Shown: positions 9,401-55,961 of the stretch, one piece after another | Numbering within the stretch: position 1 is the first letter of the stretch | Layout: each line of letters starts with the position of its first letter | IMG/VR virus record: IMGVR_UViG_3300036803_000072 | Location: 13,314-77,313 of that record | Direction: 5' to 3' (one strand) | From: a virus | Taxonomy: Duplodnaviria; Caudoviricetes | Length of the DNA: 64,000 nucleotides | Position numbers and translations under genes: made by a program | Notes under the pieces: model-generated | Databases searched by the model: none | Told to the model about the DNA's origin: nothing | What the model saw: the letters and a program-made list of their open reading frames with translations, nothing else

Positions 9401-12400
9401 TCTGCGGGGGCATGCTCGGGTCCGGTGTCGCCACCGGCGGGTAGTCGCTGTCCGGCCAGTCCGGGGGCGGTGAGCTCATCAGCGTTTCCCGCATCACCAG
9501 TTCGGTCGCTGCCTGCTCCGCTGCTTTCAGGCGTCCCAGCTTCTGGCTGAACGTCTCGTCGGGCGGGTCGGTCCCCGCCAGCGCGTCGGCCACCTGCTGT
9601 ATCTCCTGCTGCGCCCGGTCGCCCAGCTGGCCGAAGTACGTCGCCTTGTCCGCGATCTTGTCGTAGATCTGTGGCAGGTACTGCTGGTACCACTGGGCTA
9701 CCCTCGTCGCCAGTGGCCCCATGGTGGGCGTCGTCATGGGCCGATTGTGCACCCTGATCGGCGAGTCGCCAGTTGGCTTCGCTGTCGCGTTTCGCATCGA
9801 CTTCTTTCAGGATCTCGTCTACGGCGTCGTCGTCATCAGCGGCGAGCAGTCGAGCCTCTAGGGCGTGACACTCTTCCGGGTCACCGTCGACCCCCATTTC
9901 TCGCAACGCTTTGCGCAGCTTCAGCCGGTGCCCGTCGCGCACGGCATCGATGGCATCGTGCCGTGCATCGAGGTAGCCGTCCTGAAGTGAGGGTCGCCCC
10001 GACTCGTCAATGACGCGGGCAACATCGACTTTCGGCGCCGTTCCGGTCGTACTGGGTAAGGCGATCAAACCGAGGCGCCGCGCTTCCGGCGCCGCTTCGA
10101 TCTCGGTAGCGCGCTCACGGGGATTGTCGTGGCCCATGGTTCGCAGGGCGCGCACGAGGGCGCCGTGGTCACCGGAGCGCGCGGCGGCTACAGCTGCGGC
10201 GTGGGCGTCTTGGATGGCGCTGTGCGCGTCGGCGGCTTCCCCGTTGGCCTGATCGCGGGCTGAAGCGTTGGCCTGCCGGGCGGTGCGGCGCTCGGTCGAG
10301 TCGGCGGGGGGGCCGGTCCGGTCGGCGGCGCCGGGCTTGACGGCGCCCATGCGGGCACGGTGCGCGTCGTAAGCGTCCGGCGCGGGCTTCACCTTGCCGG
10401 CGGTCTCCCGGCGGCGCAGCTCCGTCTCGACGGAGCCGAGCAGGGCCTTGATCCGATCCCGTTCGATGCGCTTAGCGACCCGACGCACTTTGGCGTTCGC
10501 GTTGCGCTTGACGCGGCGTTCCTCGCGCAACCCGCCAGCGGCGGCGAACAGCATGCCGGGCTTGAGCTCCCCGCGCGCGATGGCGCCGTGGATGTCGTCC
10601 CCGATGACCCTATGAAGGTCATTGAACGCTTTGCTGTCGGCCGGGACGCGGCGCAACAACTTCGCCAAACGGTCCGCCGCTGCCTTCACCGCAGCGGGGT
10701 CGGAGTCTTTCGTATTGAGCAGGTCACCGAGGTCTTCGGCGGCCCCGGCGACACCGGGGCGCAATTTCGGGCCGGTATCCTCACCCTGCCCGGCCGGGTC
10801 GGAAGTCGCCCCCGACCCCCCCGACCCGGCCGGGGCCTTCAGCGATGTACCGGCCTCGCGCTTGCGGGCGGTGTCGCGGCGAGCCAGCTCCGTCTGGAGA
10901 GCCAGTTCGTCGGTGAGATCTTTTTGGGTGGTGTGCAGCTGCGGCGTGGTCTGTCCGACTAGTGCCGCTTCGCCCGCTTGCAAGGCGGCTTCGACGCGGT
11001 CTTGCCGGGCGGCGACCTCCTCCGTAACCTCGATCGTGCCGTCGGGGTCTTCGCTGATACCCAACGCCTTATCCCGGACCTCGGCGGCGCGGTCTTGCAC
11101 GTCGGGTGGCACGGGCACCGCGTCGGTGGGGATCTCCGACGCGGGCCTGCCTTGCGGCTGCACAGCGGCGACGGCGGCGCGCTTGCGCTTCTCATCCCCG
11201 AAGATCTTCTCGGCCATCTTCGAGTCGGAATACTCAGTCGAGGTCTTCGGCAGATTGTTTCCCCGTGCACGGGCGTGCCGCGCTTCCGCTGCCGCGTGCT
11301 CGGCTTCGAGCTGGTCGTCGGTCAGCTTCTCCGGCGCATTCATGTTGCCGGTGGGCACGTACGGGCCATCAGCGCGGGTGCCGCCACCGGGCTTGCCGAC
11401 CTGCTCACGGGCGTGCTGCTCGACGGTGGCCTGATCATCGGGCTGCGGGGTGCCGGTAGTGATCCGGGAATGCGCCGCCTGGGCGGCCTGATCGGTCACC
11501 GGGACGGCGGCCGGTGCGTTCACCCCGGGCGGCGCGTTCGGCGGCGCACCGGGCTTACTGGGGGGCGGGGCGACACCGCCGGGCGCTTGCCCCGGCTTAC
11601 CCGCGCCAGCGGCGGGGTTCGCCGCGTTGGCGATCTTGTCGAGGCGTTGCTGCGCCACCTCGGTGGGCAGCACGAGCAGGGTGGCGGCAACGTCGTGCGG
11701 ATCCTGGTCTTTGCTCAAACCCATCCGGGTCAGGGCGTCGGCGAGCTCATCGCGGTTGCCGTCACTGATCGCGCCCTCGGCGTCGTACCGGGCCTGGGCG
11801 GCGTCCGCCGATGGCATGCCTTTCGGTGCCGGGGTCGCGCCCAGGGCGGTGCCGATCGTGGCGGCCTGGGAATGCTTGGTGATGATCGCGGTAACCGAGT
11901 CCTGGTCGGCCTTCCTCGCCGCCGGGTCCGCCCACCGCTTCTTACGGGCCGCCATGTCATCCCAGGGGATGCCGAGACCGGCGATCTCGGTCAGCGCAGC
12001 CTCGACCTGATCAGGCGGGGTGTCGGTCGGCAGCATCGGCAGGGGTGAGCCGTTGGCCGTGTCGACGATCACCCAGCCCTTGCCGTTGTTCACGGCCGCG
12101 ATCTGGGAGTCCGGGGAGGCGAGCACGTTGGCGCCGGGACGGGTGAACTGGGCGAGCATGTTGGCGCTGGCGATCGCGCCGACACTGGCGACACCGCCGG
12201 GGGTGGTGTCGACGGCCTTCAGCTCGGAGATCCGCTCACCGAGGTGCGCGATCGCAGTAGCGGAGGCGTCGGTCGCACCGGACGTGTGACCGGGCAGCGC
12301 GTGACCGCCTGGTCGGTCACCGGGCGGGGGTGGTGGGCCGGCGGCGTTCGCACCCGAAGGTCGCTGTCCGGTGACCGGATGGGTGAGTTTGTGGCTGTCC

Positions 12401-13200
12401 TGCGCCGCGACGGTGGTGTGACGGATCTCGTCGTCGGTGGCGGGTCGGTCCAGGCCATGGGGTTTCGTGCCGGGCCTGATCGGCGTGCCGATAGGCATGC
12501 CCCAGAACTTCGCGTCGCGAACAGTACGCACTTTGACTTCGATCCCCTCGACGGTGGCTAGACCGGAACGAGGGTCATCGTACCACGTGTCGCCGTCGGC
12601 GGTCTCCGTTTGGAGGGATTTCACTCCAGTCAGATGTGCGAGCCGATGCGCGCCGTGCAATACCTGAGAAAACTCATACACATCGTAGTCGCTGAGGTAG
12701 CGTTTCCCGCCGCGCATTTTCGCGCCGCCGGGCCGCACCTTATAGCCAATCGAGAATGACTGCTCGGGACCGTAGAACTTCGCGTTCTCATAGGCGTCCC
12801 GGCCCGCCGTAGTGGCCAAGTTGTAGCGGGCCTTAACGAGCAGTCCGCCAGCGTTGGCGGGCCACGGGGCACCGTCGGGGGTCGTCTTCGGTAGCCGATC
12901 GTCGCCAGGCATGAGCTCAACCGCCCATTCCGCGCGCGAGACCGGGACCTTCCAGTCGTGCGAGTCGACACCCTTAGGCTTCAGCCGCTTGACGGCCACA
13001 CCCAGGGAACCGGGCACGATGACGTCACCGACCTCATCGCCGACGCCGGACACCGCAACCAGCGCGGTGATGGTGCCCTCTTTGTCGTCATGGCCGATGA
13101 CCCCGGTCATCGGTGAGGACGTCTCGCCCGTCGGCAGCGCCTTCCACTCCAGCTGACCGATGTCAGCCGGGCACGTGTCGAGGTCTTCGGTGGTGGTCAC
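3421..13200 (-). CDS. Giant polyvalent protein: HK97-type prohead protease + low-complexity/repeat cargo region + N6-adenine DNA methyltransferase + SNF2-like helicase (DarB-like)
   Basis: Protease about 13110-12619 (SHD His, SFSIGY Ser); MTase VLEPGSGSGNF (about 8821-8853) and GNVPF (about 8652-8670); helicase GHVVGAGKT (about 6691-6718), VDEAH (about 6200), ATGTP, QRDGRIMRQGN (about 5152-5190); 3259 codons without a stop. Confidence 0.9.
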   Translation of the reverse strand: MTTTEDLDTCPADIGQLEWKALPTGETSSPMTGVIGHDDKEGTITALVAVSGVGDEVGDVIVPGSLGVAVKRLKPKGVDSHDWKVPVSRAEWAVELMPGDDRLPKTTPDGAPWPANAGGLLVKARYNLATTAGRDAYENAKFYGPEQSFSIGYKVRPGGAKMRGGKRYLSDYDVYEFSQVLHGAHRLAHLTGVKSLQTETADGDTWYDDPRSGLATVEGIEVKVRTVRDAKFWGMPIGTPIRPGTKPHGLDRPATDDEIRHTTVAAQDSHKLTHPVTGQRPSGANAAGPPPPPGDRPGGHALPGHTSGATDASATAIAHLGERISELKAVDTTPGGVASVGAIASANMLAQFTRPGANVLASPDSQIAAVNNGKGWVIVDTANGSPLPMLPTDTPPDQVEAALTEIAGLGIPWDDMAARKKRWADPAARKADQDSVTAIITKHSQAATIGTALGATPAPKGMPSADAAQARYDAEGAISDGNRDELADALTRMGLSKDQDPHDVAATLLVLPTEVAQQRLDKIANAANPAAGAGKPGQAPGGVAPPPSKPGAPPNAPPGVNAPAAVPVTDQAAQAAHSRITTGTPQPDDQATVEQHAREQVGKPGGGTRADGPYVPTGNMNAPEKLTDDQLEAEHAAAEARHARARGNNLPKTSTEYSDSKMAEKIFGDEKRKRAAVAAVQPQGRPASEIPTDAVPVPPDVQDRAAEVRDKALGISEDPDGTIEVTEEVAARQDRVEAALQAGEAALVGQTTPQLHTTQKDLTDELALQTELARRDTARKREAGTSLKAPAGSGGSGATSDPAGQGEDTGPKLRPGVAGAAEDLGDLLNTKDSDPAAVKAAADRLAKLLRRVPADSKAFNDLHRVIGDDIHGAIARGELKPGMLFAAAGGLREERRVKRNANAKVRRVAKRIERDRIKALLGSVETELRRRETAGKVKPAPDAYDAHRARMGAVKPGAADRTGPPADSTERRTARQANASARDQANGEAADAHSAIQDAHAAAVAAARSGDHGALVRALRTMGHDNPRERATEIEAAPEARRLGLIALPSTTGTAPKVDVARVIDESGRPSLQDGYLDARHDAIDAVRDGHRLKLRKALREMGVDGDPEECHALEARLLAADDDDAVDEILKEVDAKRDSEANWRLADQGAQSAHDDAHHGATGDEGSPVVPAVPATDLRQDRGQGDVLRPAGRPGAAGDTAGGRRAGGDRPARRDVQPEAGTPESSGAGSDRTGDAGNADELTAPGLAGQRLPAGGDTGPEHAPAETDTGGQRTDRGPERLPTPDGSSDTGTDGQPAGSDAGSAAPAGEPDLAQPEATPGAVDAIPDAAQSFQPGGMDDLAPAGKKAKLDANLAALETLRELQKDKRPATPEEQAILARWAGWGGLPEVFDDLKPEYAADRDKLRGLLSDSEWNEAKRNTLNAHYTDATAVQAMWKAVQDLGLSDGGRVLEPGSGSGNFIGFAPSNVDMVGVELDSTTAAIAHALYPNATIRNESFADTRIPTGHFDATIGNVPFGDFKLTDRLHNRAGDSIHNHFIAKSLDLTKPGGIVAVLTSRYTLDSKGSAARKRLAEKGDLLGAVRLPTGSHQRASGTSVIEDILIFRRREPGAEPQTPQGWINSSEREIDGETVPVNDYFTEHPDQILGELHAEPGQYGTGEIRVIGDKSMADLPDALARITDAAKEQGLTSSPRLAGDGALVDPDTSRHEGHIGVDADGNFTQANGGAAVPFEVPEKQKEELRGLMGMRDTLASLLAAEAASVSNTPEIKQLRADLNAQYDAYAKRYGPINRYTLSKIGARNTPGQGGFRRDPMSATVRALETYDPETGKGHKTSIFTKRTVAPRVIPTTADNPKDALALSMDTYGRVDLPAIAKMLGTDEAGARTQLGDLIFEQPPLSDAETNAAVAADAEARGLLVDTHLTAGDVDLSTVGESVQEAGSLEPAAAYLSGNVRRKLAVAKAAAEHDPRFEANVKALEKVVPEDLGAAEIDGRLGAAWIGPTDIKAFIEEMLGVGSDRYSGVNVATSGGGIWTVDAPSYGKAATEQWGTDRKSFGELVQAMLEQRPIKVVDTIDGKSYPNLEDTLAAQAKGEEIQERFSEWLWEDPARARRLQGVYNDRFNAIVLRSYDGTERAFPGMSDAKVPRPHQVAAVERIVSEPAALLGHVVGAGKTLEMAMGCAELKRLGLANKPSIVVPNHMLEQFSREYLEAYPQAKILAAGTKDLDGDRRREFVARAATGDWDCVILTQGAFEAIPMSKDQQKAYIDRELATMRAQLLAMQSSSASGKAHDNTVKKMEKAVIRAEEAMKKKLDKQKDVGVSFDQTGIDHVMVDEAHMYSNLRTLSNIQGAAIEGSDRATDLHMKLEYLRASSQSGKVATFATGTPIRNSITQMYVMQRFMRPDLLEEAGIHSFDQWAATFGQVVEEMELKPEGIGFRQTSRFAKFRNVPELLRLFHVFADIKTAEDLNLPTPALETGAVQNVTVQPSEELRAYVAQLGERAEAVRNRTVLPEEDNMLKISGDGRKAALSMALVGGEHTTGKIEDAADKIHAIYLVNKNRPVPKDLDNPDAGDDPPPGGMQLVFLDMGTPGNPEQWNAYAKLRDELAARGMDPKSVRFIHEAKNDVQKAEMFAAARNGSISVLVGSSEKMGVGTNVQRRAVALHHLDAPWRPADVEQRDGRIMRQGNTNTTVGIYRYVTEGSFDAYMWQTLARKQKFIEQIMRGNLDAREIEDVGDTALSYDEVKALATGNMDLMAKAKADSSVAKLSKLERVHKRTQTNLEKDIVSYTANAAGADADAKVMDAAIKRRTEIGGDHFRATIAGVDVTKRADAATELKTKLGDVIDRARYAYGSPRPVQVAQIGGHTLMAKPYQGREQRMHVDLYFEDVPGVITGMSQEDVNKLGVGTIAKIEYSLHSFENRRDRFHDRAAHLRSEVAQMKTRVGMAFPKTDELKAARAESARLEAKLQADGVNTAAPTGPVATQADENVSAARSRAARAVGNMGRSTYNKAGKVVLQKFVNPQASGKAYASPDGALGAMGDASDLKVFMTTDGVSVRPAGMTGTVDDPAALLADLQALDLPWGTGSGQLQQRWSGYSYDPSDYKLNYTEREKRQEARRAEARKGEEADKAAIDAVWKRHLVPEEKTIEDMVIDAFDLSRAARLGVEIKARTASGSDTPDPEDKPDPDEEAYADTVAADIRYVMDASGVMHKVWPCAACGNDVQVPVGSDSKATACPSCGSKAGPRGVTAATGYQMQPTAATVG
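9261..9737 (-). CDS. Nested TnpV-like protein overprinted in another frame of the giant gene
   Basis: This frame has strong GC3 bias while the giant-ORF frame is AT3-rich and R/G/P/A-biased here; WYQQYLPQIY...YFGQLGDRAQQEI...ETFSQKLGRLKAAEQAATELV resembles actinobacterial TnpV-like proteins; CACAAT 6 nt before ATG 9737. Confidence 0.72.
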   Translation of the reverse strand: MTTPTMGPLATRVAQWYQQYLPQIYDKIADKATYFGQLGDRAQQEIQQVADALAGTDPPDETFSQKLGRLKAAEQAATELVMRETLMSSPPPDWPDSDYPPVATPDPSMPPQKPTPEDNELTEALSDFQLLMDQATQEQTASQREAMPVVPPRPANLT

Positions 13201-18438: not shown

Positions 18439-18746
18439 AATACCATTCCGGCAACTACGTCGGCGCTGACGAGATCGGTGCGTGGCTTGGCCGCTCCGGT
18501 GCGTGGATTCGACTGCTGCGACAGCAAGACAGCAAATACGCAATTCCCTGCCCCGTGCCACTGCCCGAACCGGACATGCTCACCGAGAAGCGCCGCCGAC
18601 GCGGGGAAAGCATCGCGTTGTGGCGTCGTGATCGCCTGCCCGAGTTTGAGGAGTGGTTCCGGGCGCACGTCCGCACGCTGGCCGAGCAGGAGATCGCCAC
18701 CATGGAAGCCAACGTGGCCCGCATGAAGCAGACGGAGACATCGTGA
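18435..18746 (+). CDS. Putative HTH DNA-binding protein (AlpA/excisionase-like)
   Basis: YVGADEIGAWLGRSGAWIR...LPEPD...LWRRDRL.EFEEW pattern. Confidence 0.55.
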   Translation: MKYHSGNYVGADEIGAWLGRSGAWIRLLRQQDSKYAIPCPVPLPEPDMLTEKRRRRGESIALWRRDRLPEFEEWFRAHVRTLAEQEIATMEANVARMKQTETS

Positions 18747-21700
18747 CCAGCTCGTTTGTTCATTGCCACGTCCATTCGGACTGCTCCATGCTCGACGGCG
18801 CCGCCCGACTGCCCGACCTGATGACCGAAGCAGTCCGGCTCGGCATGCCCGCACTGGCCATCACCGACCACGGCAACGTCTTCGGCGCCTACGACTTCTG
18901 GAAAGCGGCCCGCGCCGCCGGCATCAACCCGATCATCGGCATGGAAGGCTACGTCGCCCCCGGCTCCCGGCACGAACGCACCCGCGCCACCCTGGACGGG
19001 ACGACGGTCGATGACTCGAACCCCGGCGAGATGTACACCCACATGACGTTGCTCGCCGAGACCACCGAGGGCATGGGCAACCTGTTTCGACTGTCGTCAC
19101 TGGCCAGCCTGGAAGGCTTCTACTACAAACCGCGCATGGACCGGGAGCTGCTCGAAACCTACTCGAAGGGGATCATCGCCACCACCGGATGCCCATCCGG
19201 GGAGGTCAACCGCCTCTTGCAGCGCGGCGACTATAAAGCCGCATGCCAGGCCGCCAGCGACTACCGCGACATCTTCGGGGCCGAGAACTACTACTGCGAG
19301 CTCATGGATCACGGCATCGATGTCGAGCGCGGCGTCAAGCGAGACCTGATGCGACTCGCCCATGATCTGAACCTGCCGCTGCTGGCGACCAACGACCTGC
19401 ACTACGTGCGCGCACAGGACGCGAAGCCACACGACGCACTGCTGTGTGTCCAGACTAAGAAGACCATCGCCGACCAGAACAGGTTCCGTTTCGAGGGGCA
19501 GGAGTTCTACCTAAAGTCCGCCGAACAGATGCGGGCACTGTTCGATGACGGCGACTTCCCGGGGGCGTGCGACAACACGCTCGCCATCGCGGCCCGCTGC
19601 CACGTCGAGTTCGACGAGGGCGCCGACCTCATGCCCCGGTTCCCGGTACCTGATGGCGAGACCGAGGCCAGCTGGCTTCTCAAGGAAGTTAACCTCGGTC
19701 TCGCCCGTCGCCTTCCCCGCGACGTCCCCGCAGAATACCGCGCCCGGCTCGATGCCGAGCTCGACCTGATTCTGCGCATGGGCTACTCCGGTTACTTCCT
19801 GGTCACCGCCGACTTGATCCGTCACGCGAAGTCCATCGGCATCCGCGTCGGACCCGGTCGTGGCTCTGTCGTCGGCTCCCTGGTCGCCTACGCCCTGGGC
19901 ATCACCGAACTGGACCCGATCGTTCACCGTCTGCTGTTCGAGCGGTTCCTGAACCCGGAGCGACCCTCGACGCCCGACATCGACCTCGACTTCGACGAAC
20001 GCCGCCGAGGCGAAGTGATCGACTATGTTACCGGCAAATACGGTGCCGACCGGGTCGCCCAGATCGTCACCTACTCCACGATCAAAGCCCGCGCGGCGGT
20101 GAAAGACGCAGCGAAAGTCCTGCACGGGGCAGCCGGTTTCGCCCTCGCCGACCGGATCAGCAAGGCCATGCCCCCGCCGATCATGGGCAAGGACATCCCG
20201 TTGACCGGCATCTTCGACCCCGACCACAAGCGGTACGGCGAGTCGGCCGCCGTGCGCGCCCTGTACGACAACGACGCGCAGGTCAAAGAGGTCATCGACA
20301 CGGCGCGCGGACTGGAGGGCCTGAAGCGGCAGTGGGGAGTGCACGCCGCTGGTGTCATCGTTTCCCGCCTCCCCCTGCTCGATGTTGTCCCCATCCACCG
20401 GCGCCCAGCCGACGGGGCGATCATCACTCAGTTCGACATGTGGGCGTGCGAAGCCCTCGGTCTGGTCAAAATGGACTTCCTGGGTTTACGGAACCTGACG
20501 ATCATTGACGATTGCCTGGCGGGGATCGCAGCCAGCGGCAAACCCGTCCCCCTACTGGAGACCTTGCCGCTGGATGACCCCGGCGTCTACCAGCTGCTCG
20601 CGCGCGGCGACACCCTGGGCGTCTTCCAGCTCGACAGCGGCCCCATCCGTGACCTACTGCGCAAGATGGGGCCAACCCACTTCGGGGACATCTCCGCCTG
20701 CAACGCCCTGTACCGGCCCGGGCCGATGGCGGCCAACGCGCACAACGACTACGCCGACCGGAAAAATCACCGACAGCCGGTCAAACCCATCCACCCGGAG
20801 CTCGCCGAGCCACTGGCCGACATCCTCGACGAAACCTATGGCCTGATTGTCTACCAGGAGCAGGTACTGGCCATCGCCCAACGGGTCGCCGGGTACTCCC
20901 TGGGGCGGGCGGATCTGCTGCGCAAGGCGATGGGTAAAAAGATCCGGGCGGTGCTCGACCGAGAATACGGGCCCTTCGCTGACGGCATGGCGGCCTCCGG
21001 CTACTCCCCAGGCGCTGTCAAGGCGCTGTGGGACATCCTGATCCCGTTCTCCGACTACGCGTTCAACCGAGCCCATACCGCAGCCTACGGGCTGATCGGC
21101 TACTGGACGGCGTACCTGAAAGTGCATCACCCTGTGGAATACATGGCGGCCCTGCTCACCAGTGTCGGTGACGACAAAGACCGCAGCGCGATCTACCTGG
21201 CGGAGTGCCGCCACATGGGCATCACCGTGCTGGTGCCCGATGTGAACGCCTCGGGTGCGCACTTCACTGCCGACGGCGTCGACATCCGCTTCGGCCTCTC
21301 GGCGGTGCGCAACGTCGGGGCGGGCGCGGTCGAAGCGATCATCGCCGGTCGAGTCGACGGCCCGTACACCAGCATCGCCGACTTCCTGCGCCGAGTACCC
21401 GCTTCGGCGTGCAACAAGGGCGCGGTCGAGTCCCTGATCAAAGCGGGCGCGTTCGACTCCCTGGGATACGCACGCTGCGGCCTGCACGGTGCGTGCGCGG
21501 CGGTGATCGCAGCCGCGCGACCGAAAGGCAAACGGGCCGGGCAGGGTGACCTGTTCGCCGAAGGCGCGTTCGACGTCGACATTCCCACCGCACAGTGGGA
21601 CACCCCGGTCCAGCTCGCCCACGAGCGCGACATGCTCGGCCTCTACGTCTCCGCCCACCCCCTCGACAGCGTTGCCCCGATGCTGGCGACACAAGGGGGC

Positions 21701-22222
21701 ACGCCCATCACCGCGATCCTCGACGGCACCGTGCCCGGCGGCGGGGAAGCGGTCGTGACCGGCATGCTCACCGACGTCAAGCGCGGGGTGACCAGGGGCA
21801 AGGGCGAACCGTGGGCGAAAGCGCGACTGGAGGACCTGGCGGCCGGCATTGAGGTGCTGTTCTTCCCGAAAACCTATGCGGTGGTCGGTGAGCACGTGAC
21901 CGATGACGCGATTGTGGTGCTCAAGGTGAAGGTGTCGACGAAAGATGATCGGATCGCTCTGTTCGTCACCGACCTGATCGTGCCGGAACTACCGACGTCG
22001 AGCGCAGTGCCGCCGCTGGAGTTGGGGATCGCCGCCGGTGACTGCACACCGAAACTGTTGGCGCAGCTTACGACAGCACTGGCGGCCAACCCAGGGAATA
22101 GTGAGGTGTGGCTGCGGCTGGCCGGACCGGGCGGAGTTCACCGGCTGCGCCTGCCGGGGGGGCTGCGGGTCGATCCGTCGGTGGCCCGGAATATAGGTCA
22201 CCTTCCTGTATCAATCGGATGA
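18743..22222 (+). CDS. dnaE: DNA polymerase III alpha subunit
   Basis: PHP domain HCHVHSD/AITDHG; GPGRGS; RFLNPER..PDIDLDF; KMDFLGLRNL; YAFNRAH; OB-fold region. GTG start overlaps the upstream TGA and has GGAG. Confidence 0.96.
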   Translation: MTSSFVHCHVHSDCSMLDGAARLPDLMTEAVRLGMPALAITDHGNVFGAYDFWKAARAAGINPIIGMEGYVAPGSRHERTRATLDGTTVDDSNPGEMYTHMTLLAETTEGMGNLFRLSSLASLEGFYYKPRMDRELLETYSKGIIATTGCPSGEVNRLLQRGDYKAACQAASDYRDIFGAENYYCELMDHGIDVERGVKRDLMRLAHDLNLPLLATNDLHYVRAQDAKPHDALLCVQTKKTIADQNRFRFEGQEFYLKSAEQMRALFDDGDFPGACDNTLAIAARCHVEFDEGADLMPRFPVPDGETEASWLLKEVNLGLARRLPRDVPAEYRARLDAELDLILRMGYSGYFLVTADLIRHAKSIGIRVGPGRGSVVGSLVAYALGITELDPIVHRLLFERFLNPERPSTPDIDLDFDERRRGEVIDYVTGKYGADRVAQIVTYSTIKARAAVKDAAKVLHGAAGFALADRISKAMPPPIMGKDIPLTGIFDPDHKRYGESAAVRALYDNDAQVKEVIDTARGLEGLKRQWGVHAAGVIVSRLPLLDVVPIHRRPADGAIITQFDMWACEALGLVKMDFLGLRNLTIIDDCLAGIAASGKPVPLLETLPLDDPGVYQLLARGDTLGVFQLDSGPIRDLLRKMGPTHFGDISACNALYRPGPMAANAHNDYADRKNHRQPVKPIHPELAEPLADILDETYGLIVYQEQVLAIAQRVAGYSLGRADLLRKAMGKKIRAVLDREYGPFADGMAASGYSPGAVKALWDILIPFSDYAFNRAHTAAYGLIGYWTAYLKVHHPVEYMAALLTSVGDDKDRSAIYLAECRHMGITVLVPDVNASGAHFTADGVDIRFGLSAVRNVGAGAVEAIIAGRVDGPYTSIADFLRRVPASACNKGAVESLIKAGAFDSLGYARCGLHGACAAVIAAARPKGKRAGQGDLFAEGAFDVDIPTAQWDTPVQLAHERDMLGLYVSAHPLDSVAPMLATQGGTPITAILDGTVPGGGEAVVTGMLTDVKRGVTRGKGEPWAKARLEDLAAGIEVLFFPKTYAVVGEHVTDDAIVVLKVKVSTKDDRIALFVTDLIVPELPTSSAVPPLELGIAAGDCTPKLLAQLTTALAANPGNSEVWLRLAGPGGVHRLRLPGGLRVDPSVARNIGHLPVSIG

Positions 22223-28403: not shown

Positions 28404-28428
28404 CACTCCTCATGGCTGTCCAGCTATC

Positions 28429-28443
28429 CGTACAGGTTGTACG
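28429..28443. promoter_or_regulatory. Palindrome, candidate GntR operator overlapping a -10 box
   Basis: CGTACA-GGT-TGTACG; TACGCT 7 nt before ATG 28453. Confidence 0.45.
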
Positions 28444-28452
28444 CTGCCGGTC

Positions 28453-28701
28453 ATGGCAATCACTGTGACCCGTTCATGGACCGACGATCTGCAAGACGCG
28501 CGAGAGCGCATGAGAGAGGCGCGCAAAGCCCTAGAGGATTTGTCCGCTCACCTGGATGCACTAGCGGGGAACCCGACGCGAGGGCACGCCTACCAGGTCT
28601 CCCGCACCGCGATCCTCGCAAAGACCCTGGTTAAGGAGACCTGCGAACACGGGCATCGGGCCGTCGCCGACTACCTGGGAAACCCCGCCAACCACGACTA
28701 G
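28453..28701 (+). CDS. Small helical hypothetical protein
   Basis: 82 aa from ATG 28453; leaderless-type -10 box. Confidence 0.55.
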   Translation: MAITVTRSWTDDLQDARERMREARKALEDLSAHLDALAGNPTRGHAYQVSRTAILAKTLVKETCEHGHRAVADYLGNPANHD

Positions 28702-28828
28702 GCTGCCCGCGTGGATGGGACCTGCCCGCGCTGTCATCGCCCGCGCTACGTGGTGTGTTCGCCCTACGTTGGCGCGATGGGCTGGTGCCCCTGCCGTCCA
28801 GACGGAGCGCAGCTATGGCCGGAGCTAG

Positions 28829-29662
28829 TCAGAGCTCAGTCTCATACAGCAACGAATAAGACGCGGCCTCGACCACGGTGACAGAGAACTCCACCGCCCG
28901 CTGCCCGGCATAGAACACCCGCTCCACCTCCAGAACGCCGCTGGTGGTCTCAATACCCAGCGCGCGGCGCTCTAGCGGAGTCGGCGCCCGCCAACGGGCC
29001 TCCTCCCGCACGCGGGTGACCTCTTGCCCGATGCTGTAGAGCTCGGCGATAGTCCCACCGGGCCACGGCTGGCGCTTCGGATCAGCCACCGGAGTGTTCT
29101 CCACCAGCGGTAGCGGGATCACCGAAGTCTGTAGCTGCACCGTCACGCCATGCACACGCTTGACCAGCTGCCTGCGCAGCACCCACCAACTGGTACCCGT
29201 CGTCGGCCCCAGTTCGAGCCGGTTCGCTTCCTTCGGCGAGGCGAGAACCTCCTCATACGCGGTGCCCACCCCGTAGGCCGACCAGTCGACACCGTGATCC
29301 TCGGTGAATGCCGAGGAGTCCGGATGTACACCGCCGTTGGCCCGGATCTTCTCCAGGGCCTCGGCGTAGCGGCTCGTGGTCATCCGACGCACCTGCCGTT
29401 GCGCGGCTACTCGCGCGGGACGCCCGGTGCGCTTAACGAGTAGGCCTTCAGCGACCAGGGTGGACAGCGCGTGGCGCACGGTGTTGCGGTGCAGCCCGGA
29501 TGCCTCAGCGAGATCAGCCTCGGCCGGTAGCGCCTCGTGCGGACCCAGGTCGCCGGACGCGATGGCGTCCCGCAGCACCGTCGCGAGCTGCTGATACAGC
29601 GCCCCGCCGGTTTCGTCGTACGGGTTTACCCGCGCCCGCACTGTCTCTAGGTCCAATGGCAC
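28829..29662 (-). CDS. GntR-family (HTH + UTRA) repressor, KorSA/TraR-like
   Basis: LYQQLATVLRDAI.SG.L...LPAEADLA...HRNTVRHAL..LVAEGLL HTH; UTRA-like C-terminus (RVREE, LEVERVFY...AVEFS); divergent from the tra operon; TATGAT 6 nt before GTG. Confidence 0.88.
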   Translation of the reverse strand: MPLDLETVRARVNPYDETGGALYQQLATVLRDAIASGDLGPHEALPAEADLAEASGLHRNTVRHALSTLVAEGLLVKRTGRPARVAAQRQVRRMTTSRYAEALEKIRANGGVHPDSSAFTEDHGVDWSAYGVGTAYEEVLASPKEANRLELGPTTGTSWWVLRRQLVKRVHGVTVQLQTSVIPLPLVENTPVADPKRQPWPGGTIAELYSIGQEVTRVREEARWRAPTPLERRALGIETTSGVLEVERVFYAGQRAVEFSVTVVEAASYSLLYETEL

Positions 29663-29703
29663 GGGTGCATCATAGCGCAGCTGTGCAGCTATCCACCTAT
29701 ACC

Positions 29704-29717
29704 GCTGTACGTACAGC
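29704..29717. promoter_or_regulatory. Perfect 14-bp palindrome, candidate Kor operator
   Basis: GCTGTACGTACAGC between the divergent GntR and tra promoters. Confidence 0.65.
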
Positions 29718-29807
29718 AGGGTGTACTCTGATCAAACCGCGCCTGCCGGGCGGGTGAACTGGCTTCCGCGCCTGGCAGGCGCCACCAACGAGAGAGAGGA
29801 GACGCCG

Positions 29808-30704
29808 ATGGGCGCGCATCAGTCCGTCAGCCACGCGACTGATGCGCGCCTACTCGATCGTTGGACCCGCACCGGTGTCGCCGTCGCGGTCGCTCCCCTG
29901 TTGCCGTGGGGCGCGGTGCACGTCTTCCTACTCGCCGCCGCGTGCGGCATCCCCTCGTGGGTGGCTTGGATTCCCGCTCTGTCGACCACGGGCGTGATGA
30001 TCGCCTCGACCCGGCTGGCGCTCCAGCACAAGCTCGACCGCCACACCCGCGCGCTGGCCAAATACCTCTCCTGGTTCGCGATCACCCTCGACGCCCTGGT
30101 GTCGGGCATCTACCACGTGCTGCCCGTCCACCTCACGCCGAGCGCAGTCGTGATCTTCACCGTCGCCATCCTCCCCGCGATCATGGGCGGACTGCTGTGG
30201 CACATCCGGTCACTAGCCGGGGCGCAGGAATCCCGCGCAGCCGCCGAGGCAGCAGAGGCGGCCATCGCTGCGCAGACCGCTACGGCCGAGCTCGATGCGC
30301 AACGTCAAGCCCTCGCCCTCCAGGCCAGCGCCGACGAACAGCGCCGTCTCGACGAACTCAATCACGCGCAACAGATCGCAGACATCCGCAAGCAAGCGGC
30401 GCACGCCGCCGAACGTGAGCAGGCCGCCCGCAAGCGAGTCGCCGACGCGGTCACCGCGCCGAGCAAGCCACACCTCGTGCCCGACCCTCCGGCCGGGCCG
30501 GTGGACGCGCTGGGGCGCCCGGCGAAGGCGTCTCCGAAGCGGGACAAGGCCCTGCGCTACCTGATTGCCCAGGCAGGACGCCTCGACGAGGTCACCGCCG
30601 CTGAGGTCGATCGACACATCGAGTCCAAGGGCTACGCCCGTAAGTACCTGACCGAATGGAAGGCCGGCGTGCGGACGCACGTCACGAACAAGGGTGCCGC
30701 GTGA
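29808..30704 (+). CDS. Membrane protein, Spd/DUF2637-like spread protein
   Basis: GAGGAG RBS; four N-terminal TM helices, a coiled coil and a C-terminal helical domain; first gene of the operon containing TraB. Confidence 0.65.
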   Translation: MGAHQSVSHATDARLLDRWTRTGVAVAVAPLLPWGAVHVFLLAAACGIPSWVAWIPALSTTGVMIASTRLALQHKLDRHTRALAKYLSWFAITLDALVSGIYHVLPVHLTPSAVVIFTVAILPAIMGGLLWHIRSLAGAQESRAAAEAAEAAIAAQTATAELDAQRQALALQASADEQRRLDELNHAQQIADIRKQAAHAAEREQAARKRVADAVTAPSKPHLVPDPPAGPVDALGRPAKASPKRDKALRYLIAQAGRLDEVTAAEVDRHIESKGYARKYLTEWKAGVRTHVTNKGAA

Positions 30705-31849
30705 TGGCCACAAAGACAGATACCTCACTGGAGAAGGCCCTAGCTGCCGCGCTGAAGGCGGCCGGGGTCAAGTCCACCGGAAGCAAGACCAAGCGCAAGC
30801 CGTTCGGCAAGGGCCGGGTAGGGCGACTGTGGCGCAAAGAGCGGGAGGGCTGGAAGGAACGCAAGGCGGCCCGCAAAGGCAACCGCGAACCGAAGATCAA
30901 GACGCGTCGGGCGCGGTTCGCCGAACGTTTCAAGGCCCGCGTCGAACGCCTGCGGTACGGCAGCGCGCACTGCGGCAACTGCGGGGCCCGCATGTCCGGC
31001 AAAGACGCCGCCGGGCACGCCTGCGGGGGCAAGTCCAGCCCCGAGAAGTTCACCAAGATGAAGGCCCAGCTGCGTGACGTCGCCCGCAAGGAAGTCAAGC
31101 GCCAGGGCACCAACCGAGAGGCGAGGCGCGACCACCGCCAGGCCCGCAAAGACACCATGACCCGACCGGCACGGGTCGCGGACACGGTGATCCGACGTAC
31201 CGCGCTGGTCGCCGGTTTCGCGGGCCGGTGCACCGAGTGCAACTCGATCATCCGCAACCACGAGGCGACCACCCACAAATGCTGGTCGGCCGAGCGCACG
31301 GCGGGCACCGACAGCCGGGCTGACAACACCACCCAGCCGGGCGGCAAGAGGCTCGGCACCGACAACGCAACCCAGCCCAACCCGGCTCCGGCAACCAGCA
31401 ACGGCGCGACACCACCGGCGACACAACCCAACAGGAAGGCAGGACCAGCTATGACCAGTCCCAACGGCAAGGGTGGTGGCGGTGGCCCGTCCGGGCACGC
31501 CCAGGCCATCGCCCAGGCCATGCACAACTGGGCGCAGAACGTGCCCGGTACGCACTCCGAGATGGAAGCCGACATGCGCTCCATGCAGTGGCTGTTCGCC
31601 TCGGCCATGCCCTCCGCCATTCAGGCACGCGGGCAGGCGATGCTCGCGAAGCAGTTCCACCCGGAGTGCATCCGTCCCCTGATCGGGGTGGAAACCAACT
31701 GCGCCCAGGCCGGCGCCGGCTTCATGGAGTGCTACATGGCGATCACCACCATGTACAAGGCGCTGCTGGAGCACTACGCGGCCGGAACCCCCGACCCCGG
31801 CCGCACCTACCTGTCCGACGGCCGTGTCCCGGCCGGCGCGACCGCGTAA
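30701..31849 (+). CDS. Tra accessory protein: basic N-terminus with two Zn-knuckle-like motifs; probable second in-frame start at 31451
   Basis: CGNC...HAC and CTEC...HKC; GTGA overlap with the upstream gene; AGGAAGG RBS before internal ATG 31451. Confidence 0.6.
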   Translation: MMATKTDTSLEKALAAALKAAGVKSTGSKTKRKPFGKGRVGRLWRKEREGWKERKAARKGNREPKIKTRRARFAERFKARVERLRYGSAHCGNCGARMSGKDAAGHACGGKSSPEKFTKMKAQLRDVARKEVKRQGTNREARRDHRQARKDTMTRPARVADTVIRRTALVAGFAGRCTECNSIIRNHEATTHKCWSAERTAGTDSRADNTTQPGGKRLGTDNATQPNPAPATSNGATPPATQPNRKAGPAMTSPNGKGGGGGPSGHAQAIAQAMHNWAQNVPGTHSEMEADMRSMQWLFASAMPSAIQARGQAMLAKQFHPECIRPLIGVETNCAQAGAGFMECYMAITTMYKALLEHYAAGTPDPGRTYLSDGRVPAGATA

Positions 31850-31870
31850 GAAAGGAAAGGCAAGACCACC

Positions 31871-34000
31871 ATGACTAAGCGCGTCGGTCACGCCCCGGCG
31901 ATCACCTCGGAGCAGAGCTGGGGTGATTGGTATAACGCCAATCGTCTCCTGCTCAACCCGCTCGTTACGGGGACGGTCGTCGGGCTGGCCGGCGTGGTCA
32001 ACGCGCTGATCCTGCCGTTGTGGCCGCACACCGTCCTGTGGGTGGGGATCGGGCTACTCGTCGCCCTGTTCACGACGGTGAATCTGAAGGACCGGGGGCA
32101 GCGCGCGTTCTATCGGGCGTTCTTTGTGGCTACCGCCGCATGGTTTTTCGCGCTCGAAACGTCACTAGCGGCCAACCACTGGCGGGCGTTCGTTGTGGGC
32201 TGGTTGTGCGCCACCCTGGTCGGCTGCGGCGGGTATTGGACCGACCAGCGGGTGCGCTCAAAGATCCGACTGTCGGATGATGAGGCGGCATGGCCGGACC
32301 TGGCGGCGAGCATCGGCATCCCGAAAGCATGGATCACTCCGAAGAAAACGACCGAGTCGGGCTACTCCCGGCGTTTGTCGTGGCCCCGGGGTACCTACCA
32401 GATCTCGCGCATCAAGGGCCTCTCCGAGGCACTGGAGAACGCGCTCGGTATCCCGCACGGGCAGATGCGTCTCATGCCGGTGAAGGACAAAGACGAGAAT
32501 ATCGACTCGGGCTCCATCGATATTGTGGTGAACACCAACGCCGCATCCCGTAAGGCACCGGTGCCGTTCACCGTGCCCACCATGCGCCACATCACCGACC
32601 CGATGAACGTCGGCCCCTATGAGGACGGCGAGGACTGTGAGGTCTGCTGGTACACAAAGGGCTACGGCGGTATTCACACTCTGGCGGCCGGCATCACCCG
32701 CTCCGGCAAGTCCGGCCTGTATCACCTGATGCTCGCCGAAACTGCGGCGTGCACGGATGTGGTGCGTCTCGGTATCGACGCTAAAGGCGGCATGGCGCTG
32801 CGCCCGTGGGCGCCGATGTTCGAGTGGCTGGTCTGTGGCCGCAACTCCAAGGCTCAAGAGGAGCAGGCGGCGATGCTGGAATGGCTCGACGCCGAAATGA
32901 TGGAGCGAGAGACCTACGCGGCCGAGAAAGGCTGGGACGTGTGGCGGGTGTCCAGGAAACACCCGTTGATCATCCTCTATATCGATGAGGTCAAAGAAGT
33001 CCTCGGCATGAAGCTGGAGAACTTCACCGCCCTAGAACTGGTGGGGAAGATCGGCACGATGGGTACCGGTGTCGGTGTCCTGTTGTGCCTAGCCACCCAG
33101 CACCCAACGTTGGAGGCGTTGGCGTCGAGCCAGATCCAGGCCAACATCGGTCGGCGGTTCTGTTTCCGGGTAGAGCGGGTGGCACACCAGTACGTGATCC
33201 TGCCTAAGGGCACCGACATTGACGCCACGTTCCCGGACAAGCCGTCAGGCGATAAGGGCGCGGGGCACTGCTTCCTCAATGACGGCGGTTCGATGAAGCC
33301 GATGTCACTGCGTGTTCGCCACGTCAACCGGGGCAAGATCCGGGGCATCGTGGAGGAGTACTGGGAGTCGAAGTGCCCGATGCGGCCACTGAACACGAAG
33401 GTGCGGGTAGACGCGTGGGATGACCGCAAGCGTTGGACGCTAGCGGATCTGCCCCGGCCGGAAGACGAGGACGCGGATGAGATCTGGGAGGACGAGGGGC
33501 CCGAGATCGTGCCCGAGGATGACGACGTGCCGGGCACGGCGGGACTGTTCGATGAGACTGTGACCGTGACTCAACCGGGTCCGGGAAAGGTGACTGAGAC
33601 CGTGACTGTGGACGGGAATGAGAGGGTGACTGAGATGGTGACTGAGACGAACGAGCAGGTACCGGCGGGTGTGGATATCGACTTCGAGACGCTGCTGACG
33701 CCGCGCACACCGGAGGACGCGAGGATCCTGGCGAAGGCCCAGGCCGACTTCGCGGAGGAGATGGCGGAGTGGCCGACGGAGAAGGCACGGACCGAGTTCT
33801 GGCGCGTGTTCGGTTTGGCGGGCTCGGACGGGATCCGGGTGGGCAAGCTCGCGGAACTGTGCCACCGGTCCACGTCGTGGGCCAGTGAGGAGCTGCGGGT
33901 GGCTCGTGAGGCGGGCCTGTTGGTGCCGGCAGCGACGAAGGGCTACTACCGGATCGCCCCCGGTGCGGAGATTCCCACCGCCCGCGCTCACGCTGAGTAG
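31871..34000 (+). CDS. traB: FtsK/SpoIIIE-family DNA translocase, TraB-like (TM + ATPase + winged HTH)
   Basis: Four N-terminal TM segments; Walker A GITRSGKS; Walker B ILYIDE; LATQHP; QANIGRRFCFRV; C-terminal wHTH (GIRVGKLAELCHRSTSWASEEL...GYYRI); context of GntR and membrane genes. Confidence 0.85.
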   Translation: MTKRVGHAPAITSEQSWGDWYNANRLLLNPLVTGTVVGLAGVVNALILPLWPHTVLWVGIGLLVALFTTVNLKDRGQRAFYRAFFVATAAWFFALETSLAANHWRAFVVGWLCATLVGCGGYWTDQRVRSKIRLSDDEAAWPDLAASIGIPKAWITPKKTTESGYSRRLSWPRGTYQISRIKGLSEALENALGIPHGQMRLMPVKDKDENIDSGSIDIVVNTNAASRKAPVPFTVPTMRHITDPMNVGPYEDGEDCEVCWYTKGYGGIHTLAAGITRSGKSGLYHLMLAETAACTDVVRLGIDAKGGMALRPWAPMFEWLVCGRNSKAQEEQAAMLEWLDAEMMERETYAAEKGWDVWRVSRKHPLIILYIDEVKEVLGMKLENFTALELVGKIGTMGTGVGVLLCLATQHPTLEALASSQIQANIGRRFCFRVERVAHQYVILPKGTDIDATFPDKPSGDKGAGHCFLNDGGSMKPMSLRVRHVNRGKIRGIVEEYWESKCPMRPLNTKVRVDAWDDRKRWTLADLPRPEDEDADEIWEDEGPEIVPEDDDVPGTAGLFDETVTVTQPGPGKVTETVTVDGNERVTEMVTETNEQVPAGVDIDFETLLTPRTPEDARILAKAQADFAEEMAEWPTEKARTEFWRVFGLAGSDGIRVGKLAELCHRSTSWASEELRVAREAGLLVPAATKGYYRIAPGAEIPTARAHAE
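33560..33648 (+). repeat. GTGACT(GAGA) repeats inside traB
   Basis: GTGAC(T) at 33560, 33566, 33590, 33602, 33626 and 33638, encoding VT/VTE repeats. Confidence 0.6.
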
Positions 34001-34008
34001 TGGTGCCT

Positions 34009-34161
34009 ACTGGCGAGTCGAACTCGCCAGTGGACGCCAGACCTCGCCAGTCGGGCACCCCGCGCAGCTCCCACCTTAGGGATACTTCGCGGGGTGCCCA
34101 GAGGTCGCCAGGAGGCACCAGACCTCACCAACCCTCACCAGAGGTCGCCAGGAGGCACCAG
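34009..34161 (+). repeat. 10-bp-periodic repeat array downstream of traB (clt/iteron candidate)
   Basis: Three 10-mers ending CGCCAG (34021-50); seven consecutive 10-mers ending CCA (34091-34160), including an exact 20-bp duplication; inverted repeats 34009-18/34022-31 and 34053-64/34088-99. Confidence 0.7.
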
Positions 34162-34194
34162 CGACCCGCTACCCACTGAGACGAGTGGTTACAG

Positions 34195-34503
34195 ATGGTT
34201 ACCATGCAGGCGGTTGCCGAGCAGAGCTCCGGCGGCGGCACAGGCGGGCTGATCCTGCTCGCCCTCGGTGCCCTGCTGTGGTGGTTCGTCAAAGTGCAGC
34301 GCGACCCGTTGCGGCTGTGCCAGAAGTGCAAGGGCAAGCCACCGGGGGACGGACGGGGCAACTTCCACCACTGCCGCCGCTGCGGTGGCAACGCCCGGGT
34401 ACTCAAACCGTCGGCGTGGGCACTGATGAAGGCAGGCGTCCCGGTGCCGCGTGCACGGAGCTCGAAGCAGCATCCGTTCCGCGTGCCTAAGGACGGCGAG
34501 TAG
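34195..34503 (+). CDS. Membrane-anchored DnaJ-type zinc-finger protein
   Basis: TM helix followed by CQKCKG...CRRCGG. Confidence 0.65.
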   Translation: MVTMQAVAEQSSGGGTGGLILLALGALLWWFVKVQRDPLRLCQKCKGKPPGDGRGNFHHCRRCGGNARVLKPSAWALMKAGVPVPRARSSKQHPFRVPKDGE

Positions 34504-34632
34504 ACGCGAGTCCGGTTCCCAAAGGTGACTGTGCCCCACCTCCAGACGCGGGGGGTGGGGCACAGTCCTGGGTGGTTCAGTCACGCTCACAGTCACTCCA
34601 CGATCTCTACGGGCACGCCTGGGTGGTGCTGT

Positions 34633-54697: not shown

Positions 54698-55038
54698 GCC
54701 GCTAGTTTCGCGCGCAGCGCCTCCGGCCACTCGTCATGGTCACCCGACAGGCCGGCGATCTCCGCCAGCTCGGCGAGCAAAGCGCGATCAAAGATGGCAA
54801 AGGCGCGTAGGTCGTGCACGCCACGGTGACCGAGTGGATACTCGATGCCGTAGGCACGTAGTTCGTCGTTGACTTTGGCCAGTGAGCACGCTGGGCAGAA
54901 GTAGCCCGTGCGGCACTGGGGGATGACGCTGCACCCGATCCACACCGGCTTGAAACCTTGACCAGTGACCTCGTCAGCCAGGTAATCGAGCACGGCCACG
55001 CTGCCGAGGCCACGACACAGCCAGCAGGGCTCACTCAC
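54622..55038 (-). CDS. Cys-rich hypothetical protein
   Basis: GTGA overlap with the S2P stop; CWLC, C...C, CPAC. Confidence 0.5.
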   Translation of the reverse strand: MSEPCWLCRGLGSVAVLDYLADEVTGQGFKPVWIGCSVIPQCRTGYFCPACSLAKVNDELRAYGIEYPLGHRGVHDLRAFAIFDRALLAELAEIAGLSGDHDEWPEALRAKLAACRAETSTSPTSSPLSEPPTSPPIS

Positions 55039-55793: not shown

Positions 55794-55961
55794 GGCGACT
55801 CCTCTACAGGGCGAACTGAACCACGAGCGCGACAAACGCGATCAGGCCCAGTGCAGGAAAAAGATCAATCCCGTGGTCGGCGAGCAGGCCGATCACCGCA
55901 CTGGCGATCCCGTTGACCAGGTCAATGAGCGCGTAAATGGTGCTCGACACGAAGTCGCCCA

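Follow-up and report, generated by a model that had tools for sequence, protein, structure and literature searches.

A candidate TraB-type DNA translocation cassette beside the portal gene in a clade of putative actinobacteriophages

We analyzed a gene cassette in a 64,000-nucleotide stretch of viral DNA (positions 13,314 to 77,313 of the IMG/VR record IMGVR_UViG_3300036803_000072). This stretch, which we call the window, makes up the right-hand 64 kb of one virus contig of 77,313 bp, and coordinates are those of the window unless the contig is named. The cassette spans 28829-34567, and its center is a gene for a TraB-like ATPase, a relative of the proteins that move double-stranded DNA (dsDNA) between actinobacterial hyphae. 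A GntR/UTRA gene on the minus strand is divergent from a plus-strand operon of four genes: OrfA, OrfB, the ATPase, and OrfD. A reading made from the letters of this DNA alone (the original prediction) had described a GntR repressor divergent from an operon of a membrane protein, an accessory protein, and an FtsK/SpoIIIE-type translocase, followed by repeats, and we found every one of these elements in its place. An analysis of G+C content at third codon positions (GC3 frame analysis) of the contig agrees with the open reading frames (ORFs) that we name here.

The ATPase (31871..34000, +) is 709 amino acids long and is a predicted dsDNA translocase of the FtsK/SpoIIIE superfamily, with transmembrane (TM) helices, a motor, an acidic disordered linker, and a C-terminal winged helix. 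There is a single motor domain, with the Walker A motif GITRSGKS (residues 274-281) and the Walker B motif LIILYIDE (366-373). The membrane anchor is predicted from hydrophobic helices within about residues 26-130; the AlphaFold (AF2) model has helices at 30-47, 52-71, 75-95, and 104-148. In the same model, which has a mean predicted local distance difference test score (pLDDT) of 74, the C terminus takes a winged-helix topology (helices at 636-653, 657-663, and 668-680 plus a beta-hairpin) and is predicted to bind DNA. R666, S667, and W670 in this domain are invariant across relatives. Homologues of full length, all without a name, number 19 at identities of 46-84%, and a second group has identities of 32-36%.

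Several comparisons place the ATPase with the translocases of mobile elements. Its match to the NCBIfam family plasmid_TraB (NF041214) scores 83.7 bits (E = 1.1e-23) and aligns residues 77-698 with positions 61-635 of a 639-position model. The NCBIfam scores for FtsK (15.5 bits) and EccC (16.1 bits) are both around E = 1e-3 (3.6e-3 for EccC), and the Pfam FtsK_SpoIIIE match is sub-threshold. The best Foldseek match of the model is an FtsK motor with dsDNA (E = 2e-15), followed by TcpA (E = 8e-15), with weaker matches to EccC/EssC and HerA; profile matches in the PDB are also to TcpA and FtsK. A motor-domain profile of the ATPase family gave 55-73 bits for TraB-type proteins of plasmids and of integrative and conjugative elements from actinomycetes (AICEs) and 55-64 bits for FtsK-like proteins of Streptomyces phages, versus 36 bits for chromosomal actinobacterial FtsK (one protein) and 12-29 bits for EccC domains. 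In a maximum-likelihood tree rooted on EccC, the ATPase family clusters with pIJ101 Tra, an AICE Tra, plasmid TraB-like proteins, pZL12 Tra, Gilgamesh gp10, and Wofford gp108, and chromosomal FtsK and a Firmicutes group fall outside this cluster. Support from the SH-like approximate likelihood ratio test (SH-aLRT) is 83-84 for the mobile-element cluster and 95 for the ATPase family's own clade. The phylogeny that the original prediction had called for thus separates the ATPase from chromosomal FtsK and from ESX proteins, in agreement with the profile scores, and the match to plasmid_TraB and the tree bear out its proposal of a Streptomyces TraB-type module; we find this module to consist of a regulator, a membrane partner, a translocase, and a clt-like array. 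On scores and tree together, we reject the identification of the ATPase as a chromosomal FtsK or an EccC/ESX protein; EccC and EssC have two or three motor domains in about 1300 amino acids, versus one in 709. We classify the ATPase as a TraB homologue, not as an equivalog.

The second notable feature of the cassette is the clt-like array (34010..34161), which lies directly after the stop codon of the ATPase gene, in the 194-nt gap before OrfD. It begins with one inverted and three direct words of the type C(G/A)CCAG, continues with a central hairpin and conserved element (34053-34099), and ends with six to seven further words. The words are spaced by 10 bp and form two blocks. C(G/A)CCAG occurs nine times in 170 bp; the next-best locus has four copies, and the maximum in 200 shuffles was five. 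All five same-strand word pairs with a spacing of exactly 10 in the 77-kb contig fall in the array (the shuffle mean is 0.14). Published clt loci are found at the 3' end of tra or beside it; they are made up of direct and inverted repeats, to which the translocase binds by its winged helix (PMC3583192). The array likewise places short repeats, both direct and inverted, beside the 3' end of the ATPase gene, and by analogy it may function as a clt. The ATPase also shares with chromosomal FtsK and SpoIIIE the motor fold and a C-terminal winged helix for reading short DNA words, although for the ATPase such reading is a prediction. It differs from chromosomal FtsK with its KOPS or SRS sequences in its weak scores, in its placement outside that group, and in having its words in a single array: we found no KOPS-like genome-wide skew of the repeat word in the 77-kb contig.

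The array is conserved and changes with the lineage. In 17 of 17 related loci (designated by L numbers, with L001 for the contig itself), a lineage-specific word is repeated 3' of the ATPase gene, with thinner evidence for L044 and L046, and in 7 of the 17 the positions of the words are kept almost to the nucleotide. The words of the different lineages are CGCCAG/CACCAG, GCCCAG, CTCCAG, CTCCGG, GGCCAG/GACCAG, GTCCAG, CTGGCGCC, GTCCGG, and CGTCCA. The recognition-helix residues after the invariant positions can be sorted into types, which correspond roughly to the word; L002 and L037, for instance, have a common helix, VHE(Q/R)MH, and a common word prefix, CTCC. Predictions of the word from the helix, made in advance, were partly correct: L037 shares CTCC with L002, and L039 shares words with L004. 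That a conserved, co-varying array lies on the phage genome beside the ATPase gene is an argument for phage DNA as the substrate.

The other genes of the operon are OrfA, OrfB, and OrfD, which are kept across related contigs. OrfA (29808..30704, +) has a four-helix membrane domain (three to four hydrophobic helices), an Ala/Gln-rich coiled coil, and a conserved C-terminal domain of about 60 amino acids. Translational coupling is known from Spd operons, and SpdB2 is a membrane protein of four helices that forms pores (PMC4447253); OrfA too is predicted to be an integral membrane protein of about four helices, and it is encoded in a tra/spd-type operon. It had been called Spd-like beforehand. 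Its membrane helices and its position in the operon agree with that description, but direct matches to DUF2637 or SpdB do not: a Pfam scan of OrfA gave no match, a permissive Pfam scan of eight homologues gave noise alone, and hhalign gave non-significant probabilities of 5% for a plasmid DUF2637 protein and 0.2% for pIJ101 SpdB. A profile search found 77 representatives, and 15 of 53 distant matches carry DUF2637 (best E = 1.7e-26). Language-model leads for OrfA were the SpdB_N, HTH_SpdB_C, and DUF2637 clusters, with scores under 0.9 for SpdB_N and HTH_SpdB_C. (A pooled 74-sequence OrfA profile and pairwise phmmer comparisons were dominated by composition bias, and we rejected both.) We regard OrfA as a candidate spread protein and a possible remote member of the DUF2637 superfamily.

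OrfB (30704..31849, +) is a very basic protein without a TM helix; it contains one or two CxxC...HxC ribbons, a disordered linker, and a conserved three-helix bundle at the C terminus. Its start overlaps the stop of OrfA by 1 nt, and the two genes are probably translationally coupled. The C-terminal domain is 39-51% identical in relatives and 26% identical in the distant L006 lineage; the fold is predicted at low confidence (pLDDT of 59). OrfD (34195..34503, +), the last gene of the operon, encodes 102 amino acids with one TM helix and a Cys4 ribbon. It is 46-62% identical in L002 and L004 and was also found in L037, L040, and L041.

OrfB and the form of the array bear on whether the cassette handles phage DNA inside the cell, for example whether it anchors, segregates, or resolves replicating or concatemeric genomes at the membrane. 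In that case OrfB, OrfD, or the regulator would bind the array, which would be a centromere-like or operator site and no transfer origin. We consider this quite unlikely, although several features fit it. The two repeat blocks surround a conserved, promoter-like central element directly upstream of OrfD, and we take this arrangement to resemble iteron-type centromere or operator sites such as parC of plasmid R1. OrfB, very basic and with zinc ribbons, is a plausible DNA binder, and the cassette adjoins packaging and head genes. However, the ATPase resembles TraB over its full length, including the membrane anchor and the winged helix; the DUF2637-type membrane partner and the plasmid-like logic of the operon favor transport across the envelope; and the translocase is the sole candidate for a partition NTPase.

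The regulator (28829..29662, -) is a HutC-type protein with GntR (Pfam E = 6e-16) and UTRA (E = 2e-11) domains. It is 65% identical to its counterpart in L002 and 28% identical to GntR genes of pZL12 and of a Streptomyces globisporus plasmid. The divergent promoter/operator region (29663..29807) contains a perfect 14-bp palindrome, GCTGTACGTACAGC, at 29704-29717. At the left edge of the cassette is a small ORF of 82 amino acids (28453..28701, +), with 34-37% identical homologues at the same position in L039-L041; it begins where the original prediction had set the start of the module. Upstream of it, at 28429-28443, lies the palindrome CGTACAGGTTGTACG, which may be a second GntR operator. (The window has three copies of the 9-mer CAGCTATCC, at 28421, 29686, and 58097, and the first two copies are just upstream of these two GTAC palindromes.) Related operator-like palindromes are present in L005 and L002; the palindromes differ in L004, whose regulator differs as well. 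A GntR-type repressor divergent from the transfer genes is typical of Streptomyces plasmid TraB systems, and the same layout is found in pIJ101, in two Streptomyces plasmids, and in pZL12. By this analogy, the regulator would be a counterpart of TraR and KorA. At the other end, a perfect, GC-rich 17-bp hairpin (34527..34567) sits between convergent genes and is probably the terminator that closes the cassette: its minimum free energy has a z-score of -3.5, and 0 of 200 shuffles fold as well. We found no sigma-70 consensus promoters within the cassette, as expected because this is high-GC actinobacterial DNA.

In L004, a 114-kb relative, the GntR gene is replaced (at 6593-7634) by genes for an HTH_31/DUF5753 protein and a DUF397 protein. 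We take this pair to be WhiJ/BldB-like and typical of Streptomyces developmental loci, and it hints at the host group and at developmental control. Together with a weak SsgA match in another relative, it is also what could be expected if the cassette served to manipulate or exclude: by interfering with septation, chromosome segregation, or sporulation, by loading phage DNA into prespores so that it is dispersed, or by blocking incoming plasmids or phages. The literature does tie phage FtsK-like and WhiB-like genes to host development (PMC13587820). Nevertheless, we give such functions little credence. The co-varying array beside the ATPase gene points to phage DNA, and the repeat word has none of the genome-wide skew of KOPS. 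Loading of spores would still be array-directed translocation of phage DNA, and it overlaps with the reading that we prefer below.

The cassette has much in common with the TraB/clt/Spd/TraR modules of plasmids and AICEs, such as those of pSVH1 and pIJ101. There, too, a GntR repressor gene is divergent from an operon with translational coupling; the translocase is FtsK-like, anchored in the membrane, about 650-770 amino acids long, and equipped with a C-terminal winged helix; a cis site with repeats lies at the 3' end of its gene or just beyond it; and a four-helix protein serves as membrane partner. In pIJ101, KorA (of the GntR family) is divergent from tra-spdA-spdB-kilB; in two Streptomyces plasmids, a GntR gene is divergent from small ORFs and a gene for a TraB-like protein of about 705-711 amino acids, with a DUF2637 protein downstream. 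There are also differences. The ATPase is only 24-31% identical to plasmid TraB proteins, the partner genes are upstream rather than downstream of the translocase gene, we detected no plasmid counterparts of OrfB and OrfD, and the array, unlike plasmid clt, is strictly phased at 10 bp in two blocks. Finally, the cassette is on a phage genome of about 120 kb with a contractile tail and without a plasmid Rep.

The contig encodes a tail sheath, a tail assembly chaperone, neck and tape-measure proteins, an HK97-type capsid, a portal, and a MuF protein with an intein, and it belongs to a contractile-tailed phage. The portal, MuF, and capsid genes had been foreseen; a protease had been as well, but a Peptidase_S78 search of the contig was negative and Pfam scans gave no protease domain. 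Other products encoded here are a DnaE-type polymerase, a sigma-70-like factor, an Rpf-like transglycosylase with a LysM domain, a DUF932 protein, a sortase, a YdjM-like protein, a cation-efflux protein, and an M50 peptidase. Neither a terminal repeat nor a circular overlap is present in the contig; CheckV estimates that it is 64% complete, and its left end truncates the tape-measure gene. We found no integrase (PF00589), ParB, or TerL (the large terminase subunit) in the 77-kb contig. The original prediction had noted that no Rep or integrase flanks the module, and this holds: the flanks are phage genes (a sigma factor and the portal on one side, small phage ORFs on the other), although the statement for the contig as a whole covers only about two-thirds of the genome.

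We looked for the cassette in independent contigs from JGI, ENA, Logan, and IMG/VR. (Scans of viral contigs with a single ATPase or portal sequence found nothing or few loci, so alignments were used as queries instead. A DNA-level search of the module against phage records gave no match.) In independent contigs, the regulator, OrfA, OrfB, ATPase, and OrfD lie 2.5-6 kb from the portal and MuF genes, in divergent orientation. A distant lineage has two ORFs of about 300 amino acids, the ATPase, and then a YdjM protein. We also performed a census with the portal, not the ATPase, as the query, using contigs with at least 8 kb of flank. The ATPase is within 10 kb of the portal in 12 of 13 viral contigs whose portal is at least 45% identical and in 0 of 17 with portals that are 32-44% identical. 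Overall, the cassette is a syntenic core feature of this phage clade, which consists of uncultured, contractile-tailed phages of filamentous actinobacteria, with genomes of about 100-120 kb and a TraB-type cassette beside the portal.

This synteny makes it scarcely credible that the cassette is a passenger, namely a product of chimeric assembly or a fragment of an AICE or plasmid that inserted into a phage. It is true that the strand of the operon is opposite to that of almost all of its neighbors and that the contig is incomplete. But in many separate assemblies, some of them complete genomes with terminal repeats, the cassette is found at one and the same place with respect to portal and MuF, its base composition is unremarkable, and the integrase, excisionase, Rep, and att flanks of an AICE are missing around it. 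An independent AICE and a chimeric assembly, which had been named beforehand as outcomes that would speak against a phage module, are both effectively refuted by the synteny across independent contigs.

The relatives include three complete genomes (G003, G004, and G005, the records behind L040, L041, and L045), which have direct terminal repeats and CheckV completeness of 100%; complete genomes in the clade measure 101, 120 (120.2), and 121.5 kb. Two more relatives are 91-92% complete. The rest of the replicon had been singled out for a search for Rep, ParAB, integrase, and terL. Terminase and portal were found: Terminase_6N matched in 5 of 5 relatives and the portal family in 5 of 5 records tested, and these serve as positive controls. 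No match to Phage_integrase, Resolvase, ParB_N, or the ParA-type AAA_31 was found in these five relatives. From these searches, canonical lysogeny and partition functions appear to be absent from the clade. TerL is missing from our 64%-complete contig because it lies about 55 kb from the portal. (This is the distance in G003 and G004; in G005 it is about 75 kb, or about 27 kb if measured in the opposite direction around a circle. It is an unusual separation of packaging genes.)

The closest precedent is pZL12 (phage ZL12, GQ919031, 90 kb), reportedly described as a plasmid-phage by Zhong and colleagues in 2010, in J Bacteriol 192:3747. Like the clade, it is a capsid-encoding genome with a GntR-controlled operon near head genes. 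That operon, with its divergent GntR gene, ends with a membrane protein, a 766-aa protein, and an FtsK-like Tra. Our contig and its syntenic relatives likewise carry virion genes and a tra-type module on one replicon, as a pZL12-type phage-plasmid does. On the other hand, pZL12 has ParA/ParB and an integrase or recombinase, none of which we detected in the clade, its head and tail genes differ, and the similarity of its Tra to the ATPase is marginal (21% over 190 amino acids). Conjugal transfer of pZL12 has been demonstrated experimentally and needs tra and two adjacent genes, as cited in PMC3583192.

By comparison with pZL12, these phages could be extrachromosomal plasmid-prophages that form virions and also transfer the whole genome by TraB conjugation from a living donor mycelium. 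We think this unlikely. In addition to the composition of pZL12 and the genes that its transfer requires, it draws on portal relatives (33-35% identical) that are found on seven Streptomyces plasmids of 125-132 kb (including NZ_CP122459.1 and CP108533.1) and on one Thermobispora plasmid. Two of the portal-bearing plasmids also match the ATPase, and one is linear and has the portal, then a 6289-aa helicase ORF, and MazE/Doc toxin-antitoxin genes. The FtsK-like protein of this linear plasmid pairs in the tree (99% SH-aLRT) with gp10 of phage Gilgamesh (MN234216), which suggests that the seven Streptomyces plasmids may be plasmid-prophages of the Gilgamesh kind or phage genomes in a carried state. 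Long-term carriage would also suit the tight repressor dedicated to the cassette and the cargo-like genes (cation efflux, M50 peptidase, sortase). Against these points stand the five relatives without integrase, resolvase, ParA, or ParB despite positive controls, the lack of these genes in the 77-kb contig, and the bare similarity of pZL12 Tra. Also, a search of 185,579 species-representative genomes found no close relative except one contig in an Actinophytocola metagenome-assembled genome, at 29% identity.

The original prediction had concluded that the whole genome may spread both as virions and by TraB-mediated transfer between mycelia. The cassette does reside in a phage genome, but a conjugating donor state finds no counterpart in the relatives, where lysogeny and partition genes were not found. 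This dual lifestyle is not supported as it was stated, because in classical conjugation a living donor must harbor the genome as a plasmid or prophage; it is possible but unproven. Spread of replicating phage DNA in the mycelium fits the data at least as well. We prefer spread during infection to conjugation of a plasmid-prophage because the complete relatives show no lysogeny or partition genes.

From the domain architecture, family placement, array uniqueness and conservation, synteny, and core status that we observed, we propose the following mechanism. The GntR regulator would repress the operon through GTAC-containing palindromic operators. Once expressed, the ATPase would insert into the membrane by its N-terminal helices and form an FtsK-like ring, presumably a hexamer. 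Its C-terminal winged helices would read the 10-bp-phased words 3' of its own gene and so load the motor on the double-stranded phage genome. ATP hydrolysis would then pump phage DNA across the membrane or the septal cross-wall, probably into a neighboring hyphal compartment or an adjoining hypha, with OrfA, OrfB, and OrfD as likely partner proteins. If this operates during infection, replicating phage genomes could spread through a compartmentalized mycelium. We put the probability that the cassette encodes an array-directed, TraB-type dsDNA pump that acts on its own phage genome, as a core function, and spreads phage DNA in the mycelium at about 50%. More tentatively, these may be virulent or at least non-integrating, ParAB-less actinophages that use a TraB/clt/DUF2637 apparatus to pump their replicating genomes from cell to cell, through septal cross-walls or hyphal contacts and without an extracellular virion stage, a strategy evolved for multicellular hosts; we consider this broader claim possible but doubtful.

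A number of points weigh against this pump. The mechanism is drawn from sequences and models, and the phages and their hosts are uncultured. The score of the ATPase is far below the 800-bit equivalog cut-off of plasmid_TraB, and deep nodes of the tree have moderate support and long branches, so that the deep order is uncertain. The link from OrfA to Spd proteins is indirect. OrfB has no family match, and both OrfB and OrfD are without known relatives. The covariation of helix and word is not independent proof, because the relatives share ancestry, and the prediction of the word from the helix failed for L040 and L041, which have mostly GTCCAG rather than the words of L004. OrfB, OrfD, or the regulator, rather than the ATPase, could be what binds the array. 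Lastly, an unrecognized or unconventional plasmid state is possible, and the portal relatives on plasmids point in the same direction.

The idea is not new in concept, as pZL12, phage FtsK-like genes, and plasmid TraB/clt systems are all precedents, and it had already been speculated that actinophages spread their DNA through the mycelium as plasmids do (Thoma et al. 2015). Among capsid-encoding genomes, pZL12 alone offers an experimental precedent for the use of a Tra translocase. FtsK-like genes have been noted repeatedly in the genomes of Streptomyces phages, and their role there is not established in the literature. Those of Gilgamesh (gp10), Wofford (gp108), Tomas, Naboo, and others encode proteins that are 23-25% identical to the ATPase and fall in the same broad tree cluster. 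According to the annotations, they have no adjacent GntR gene or OrfA/B/D set, and they are not linked to the portal; gp10 of Gilgamesh is followed by a membrane protein gene. In a crude scan for exact 6-mers, the surroundings of the translocase genes in Gilgamesh, Wofford, the 11x1 plasmid, and pZL12 gave no phased array. What makes the cassette of interest is its core status, a cis site that co-varies, and the fact that a plasmid or lysogenic state is apparently lacking. The speculation of Thoma et al. (2015) thereby becomes concretely testable. If phage DNA does spread in this way, then the view of phage burst, plaque formation, and defense in multicellular bacteria would change, and there would be an additional route for the horizontal transfer of 100-kb DNA.

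Several other features of the contig and its relatives deserve mention. A YdjM-family membrane protein and a sortase are encoded among tail and neck genes upstream of the window (contig positions 6520-7749 and 8861-9481 in L001). In the distant lineage, with genomes of 104-157 kb, YdjM is directly 3' of the TraB-like ATPase, and YdjM may be part of the function of the cassette. Between MuF and capsid, a 3259-aa ORF (3421-13200, -) has weak Pfam matches to an Eco57I-type methylase and a SNF2/ResIII helicase and resembles DarB-type anti-restriction proteins; a prohead-protease domain was not detected in this ORF or in the contig. The 6289-aa helicase ORF is at the equivalent position of its 131-kb Streptomyces plasmid.

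The MuF protein (P0009; 22385-24712, -) is interrupted by an intein, and a 1158-aa homologue of the TraB-like ATPase bears a LAGLIDADG-type intein or homing-endonuclease insertion. The DnaE-type gene (18653-22222, +) encodes a full-length Pol III alpha subunit with PHP, polymerase, fingers, HhH, and OB domains; it is on the plus strand within the minus-strand structural region, between the DUF932 gene and MuF. Among small early genes are those for a cation-efflux (CDF) protein (50783-51454, -) and an M50 site-2-protease-like membrane protein (55035-55835, -), which are cargo-like and unusual in a strictly lytic phage. Finally, an intergenic region where the coding strand switches contains a near-perfect palindrome of 112 bp (61837-61948), with 56-nt arms that are 89% complementary, along with two GGTCTGCATCG repeats; the palindrome region is a candidate replication origin or regulatory site.

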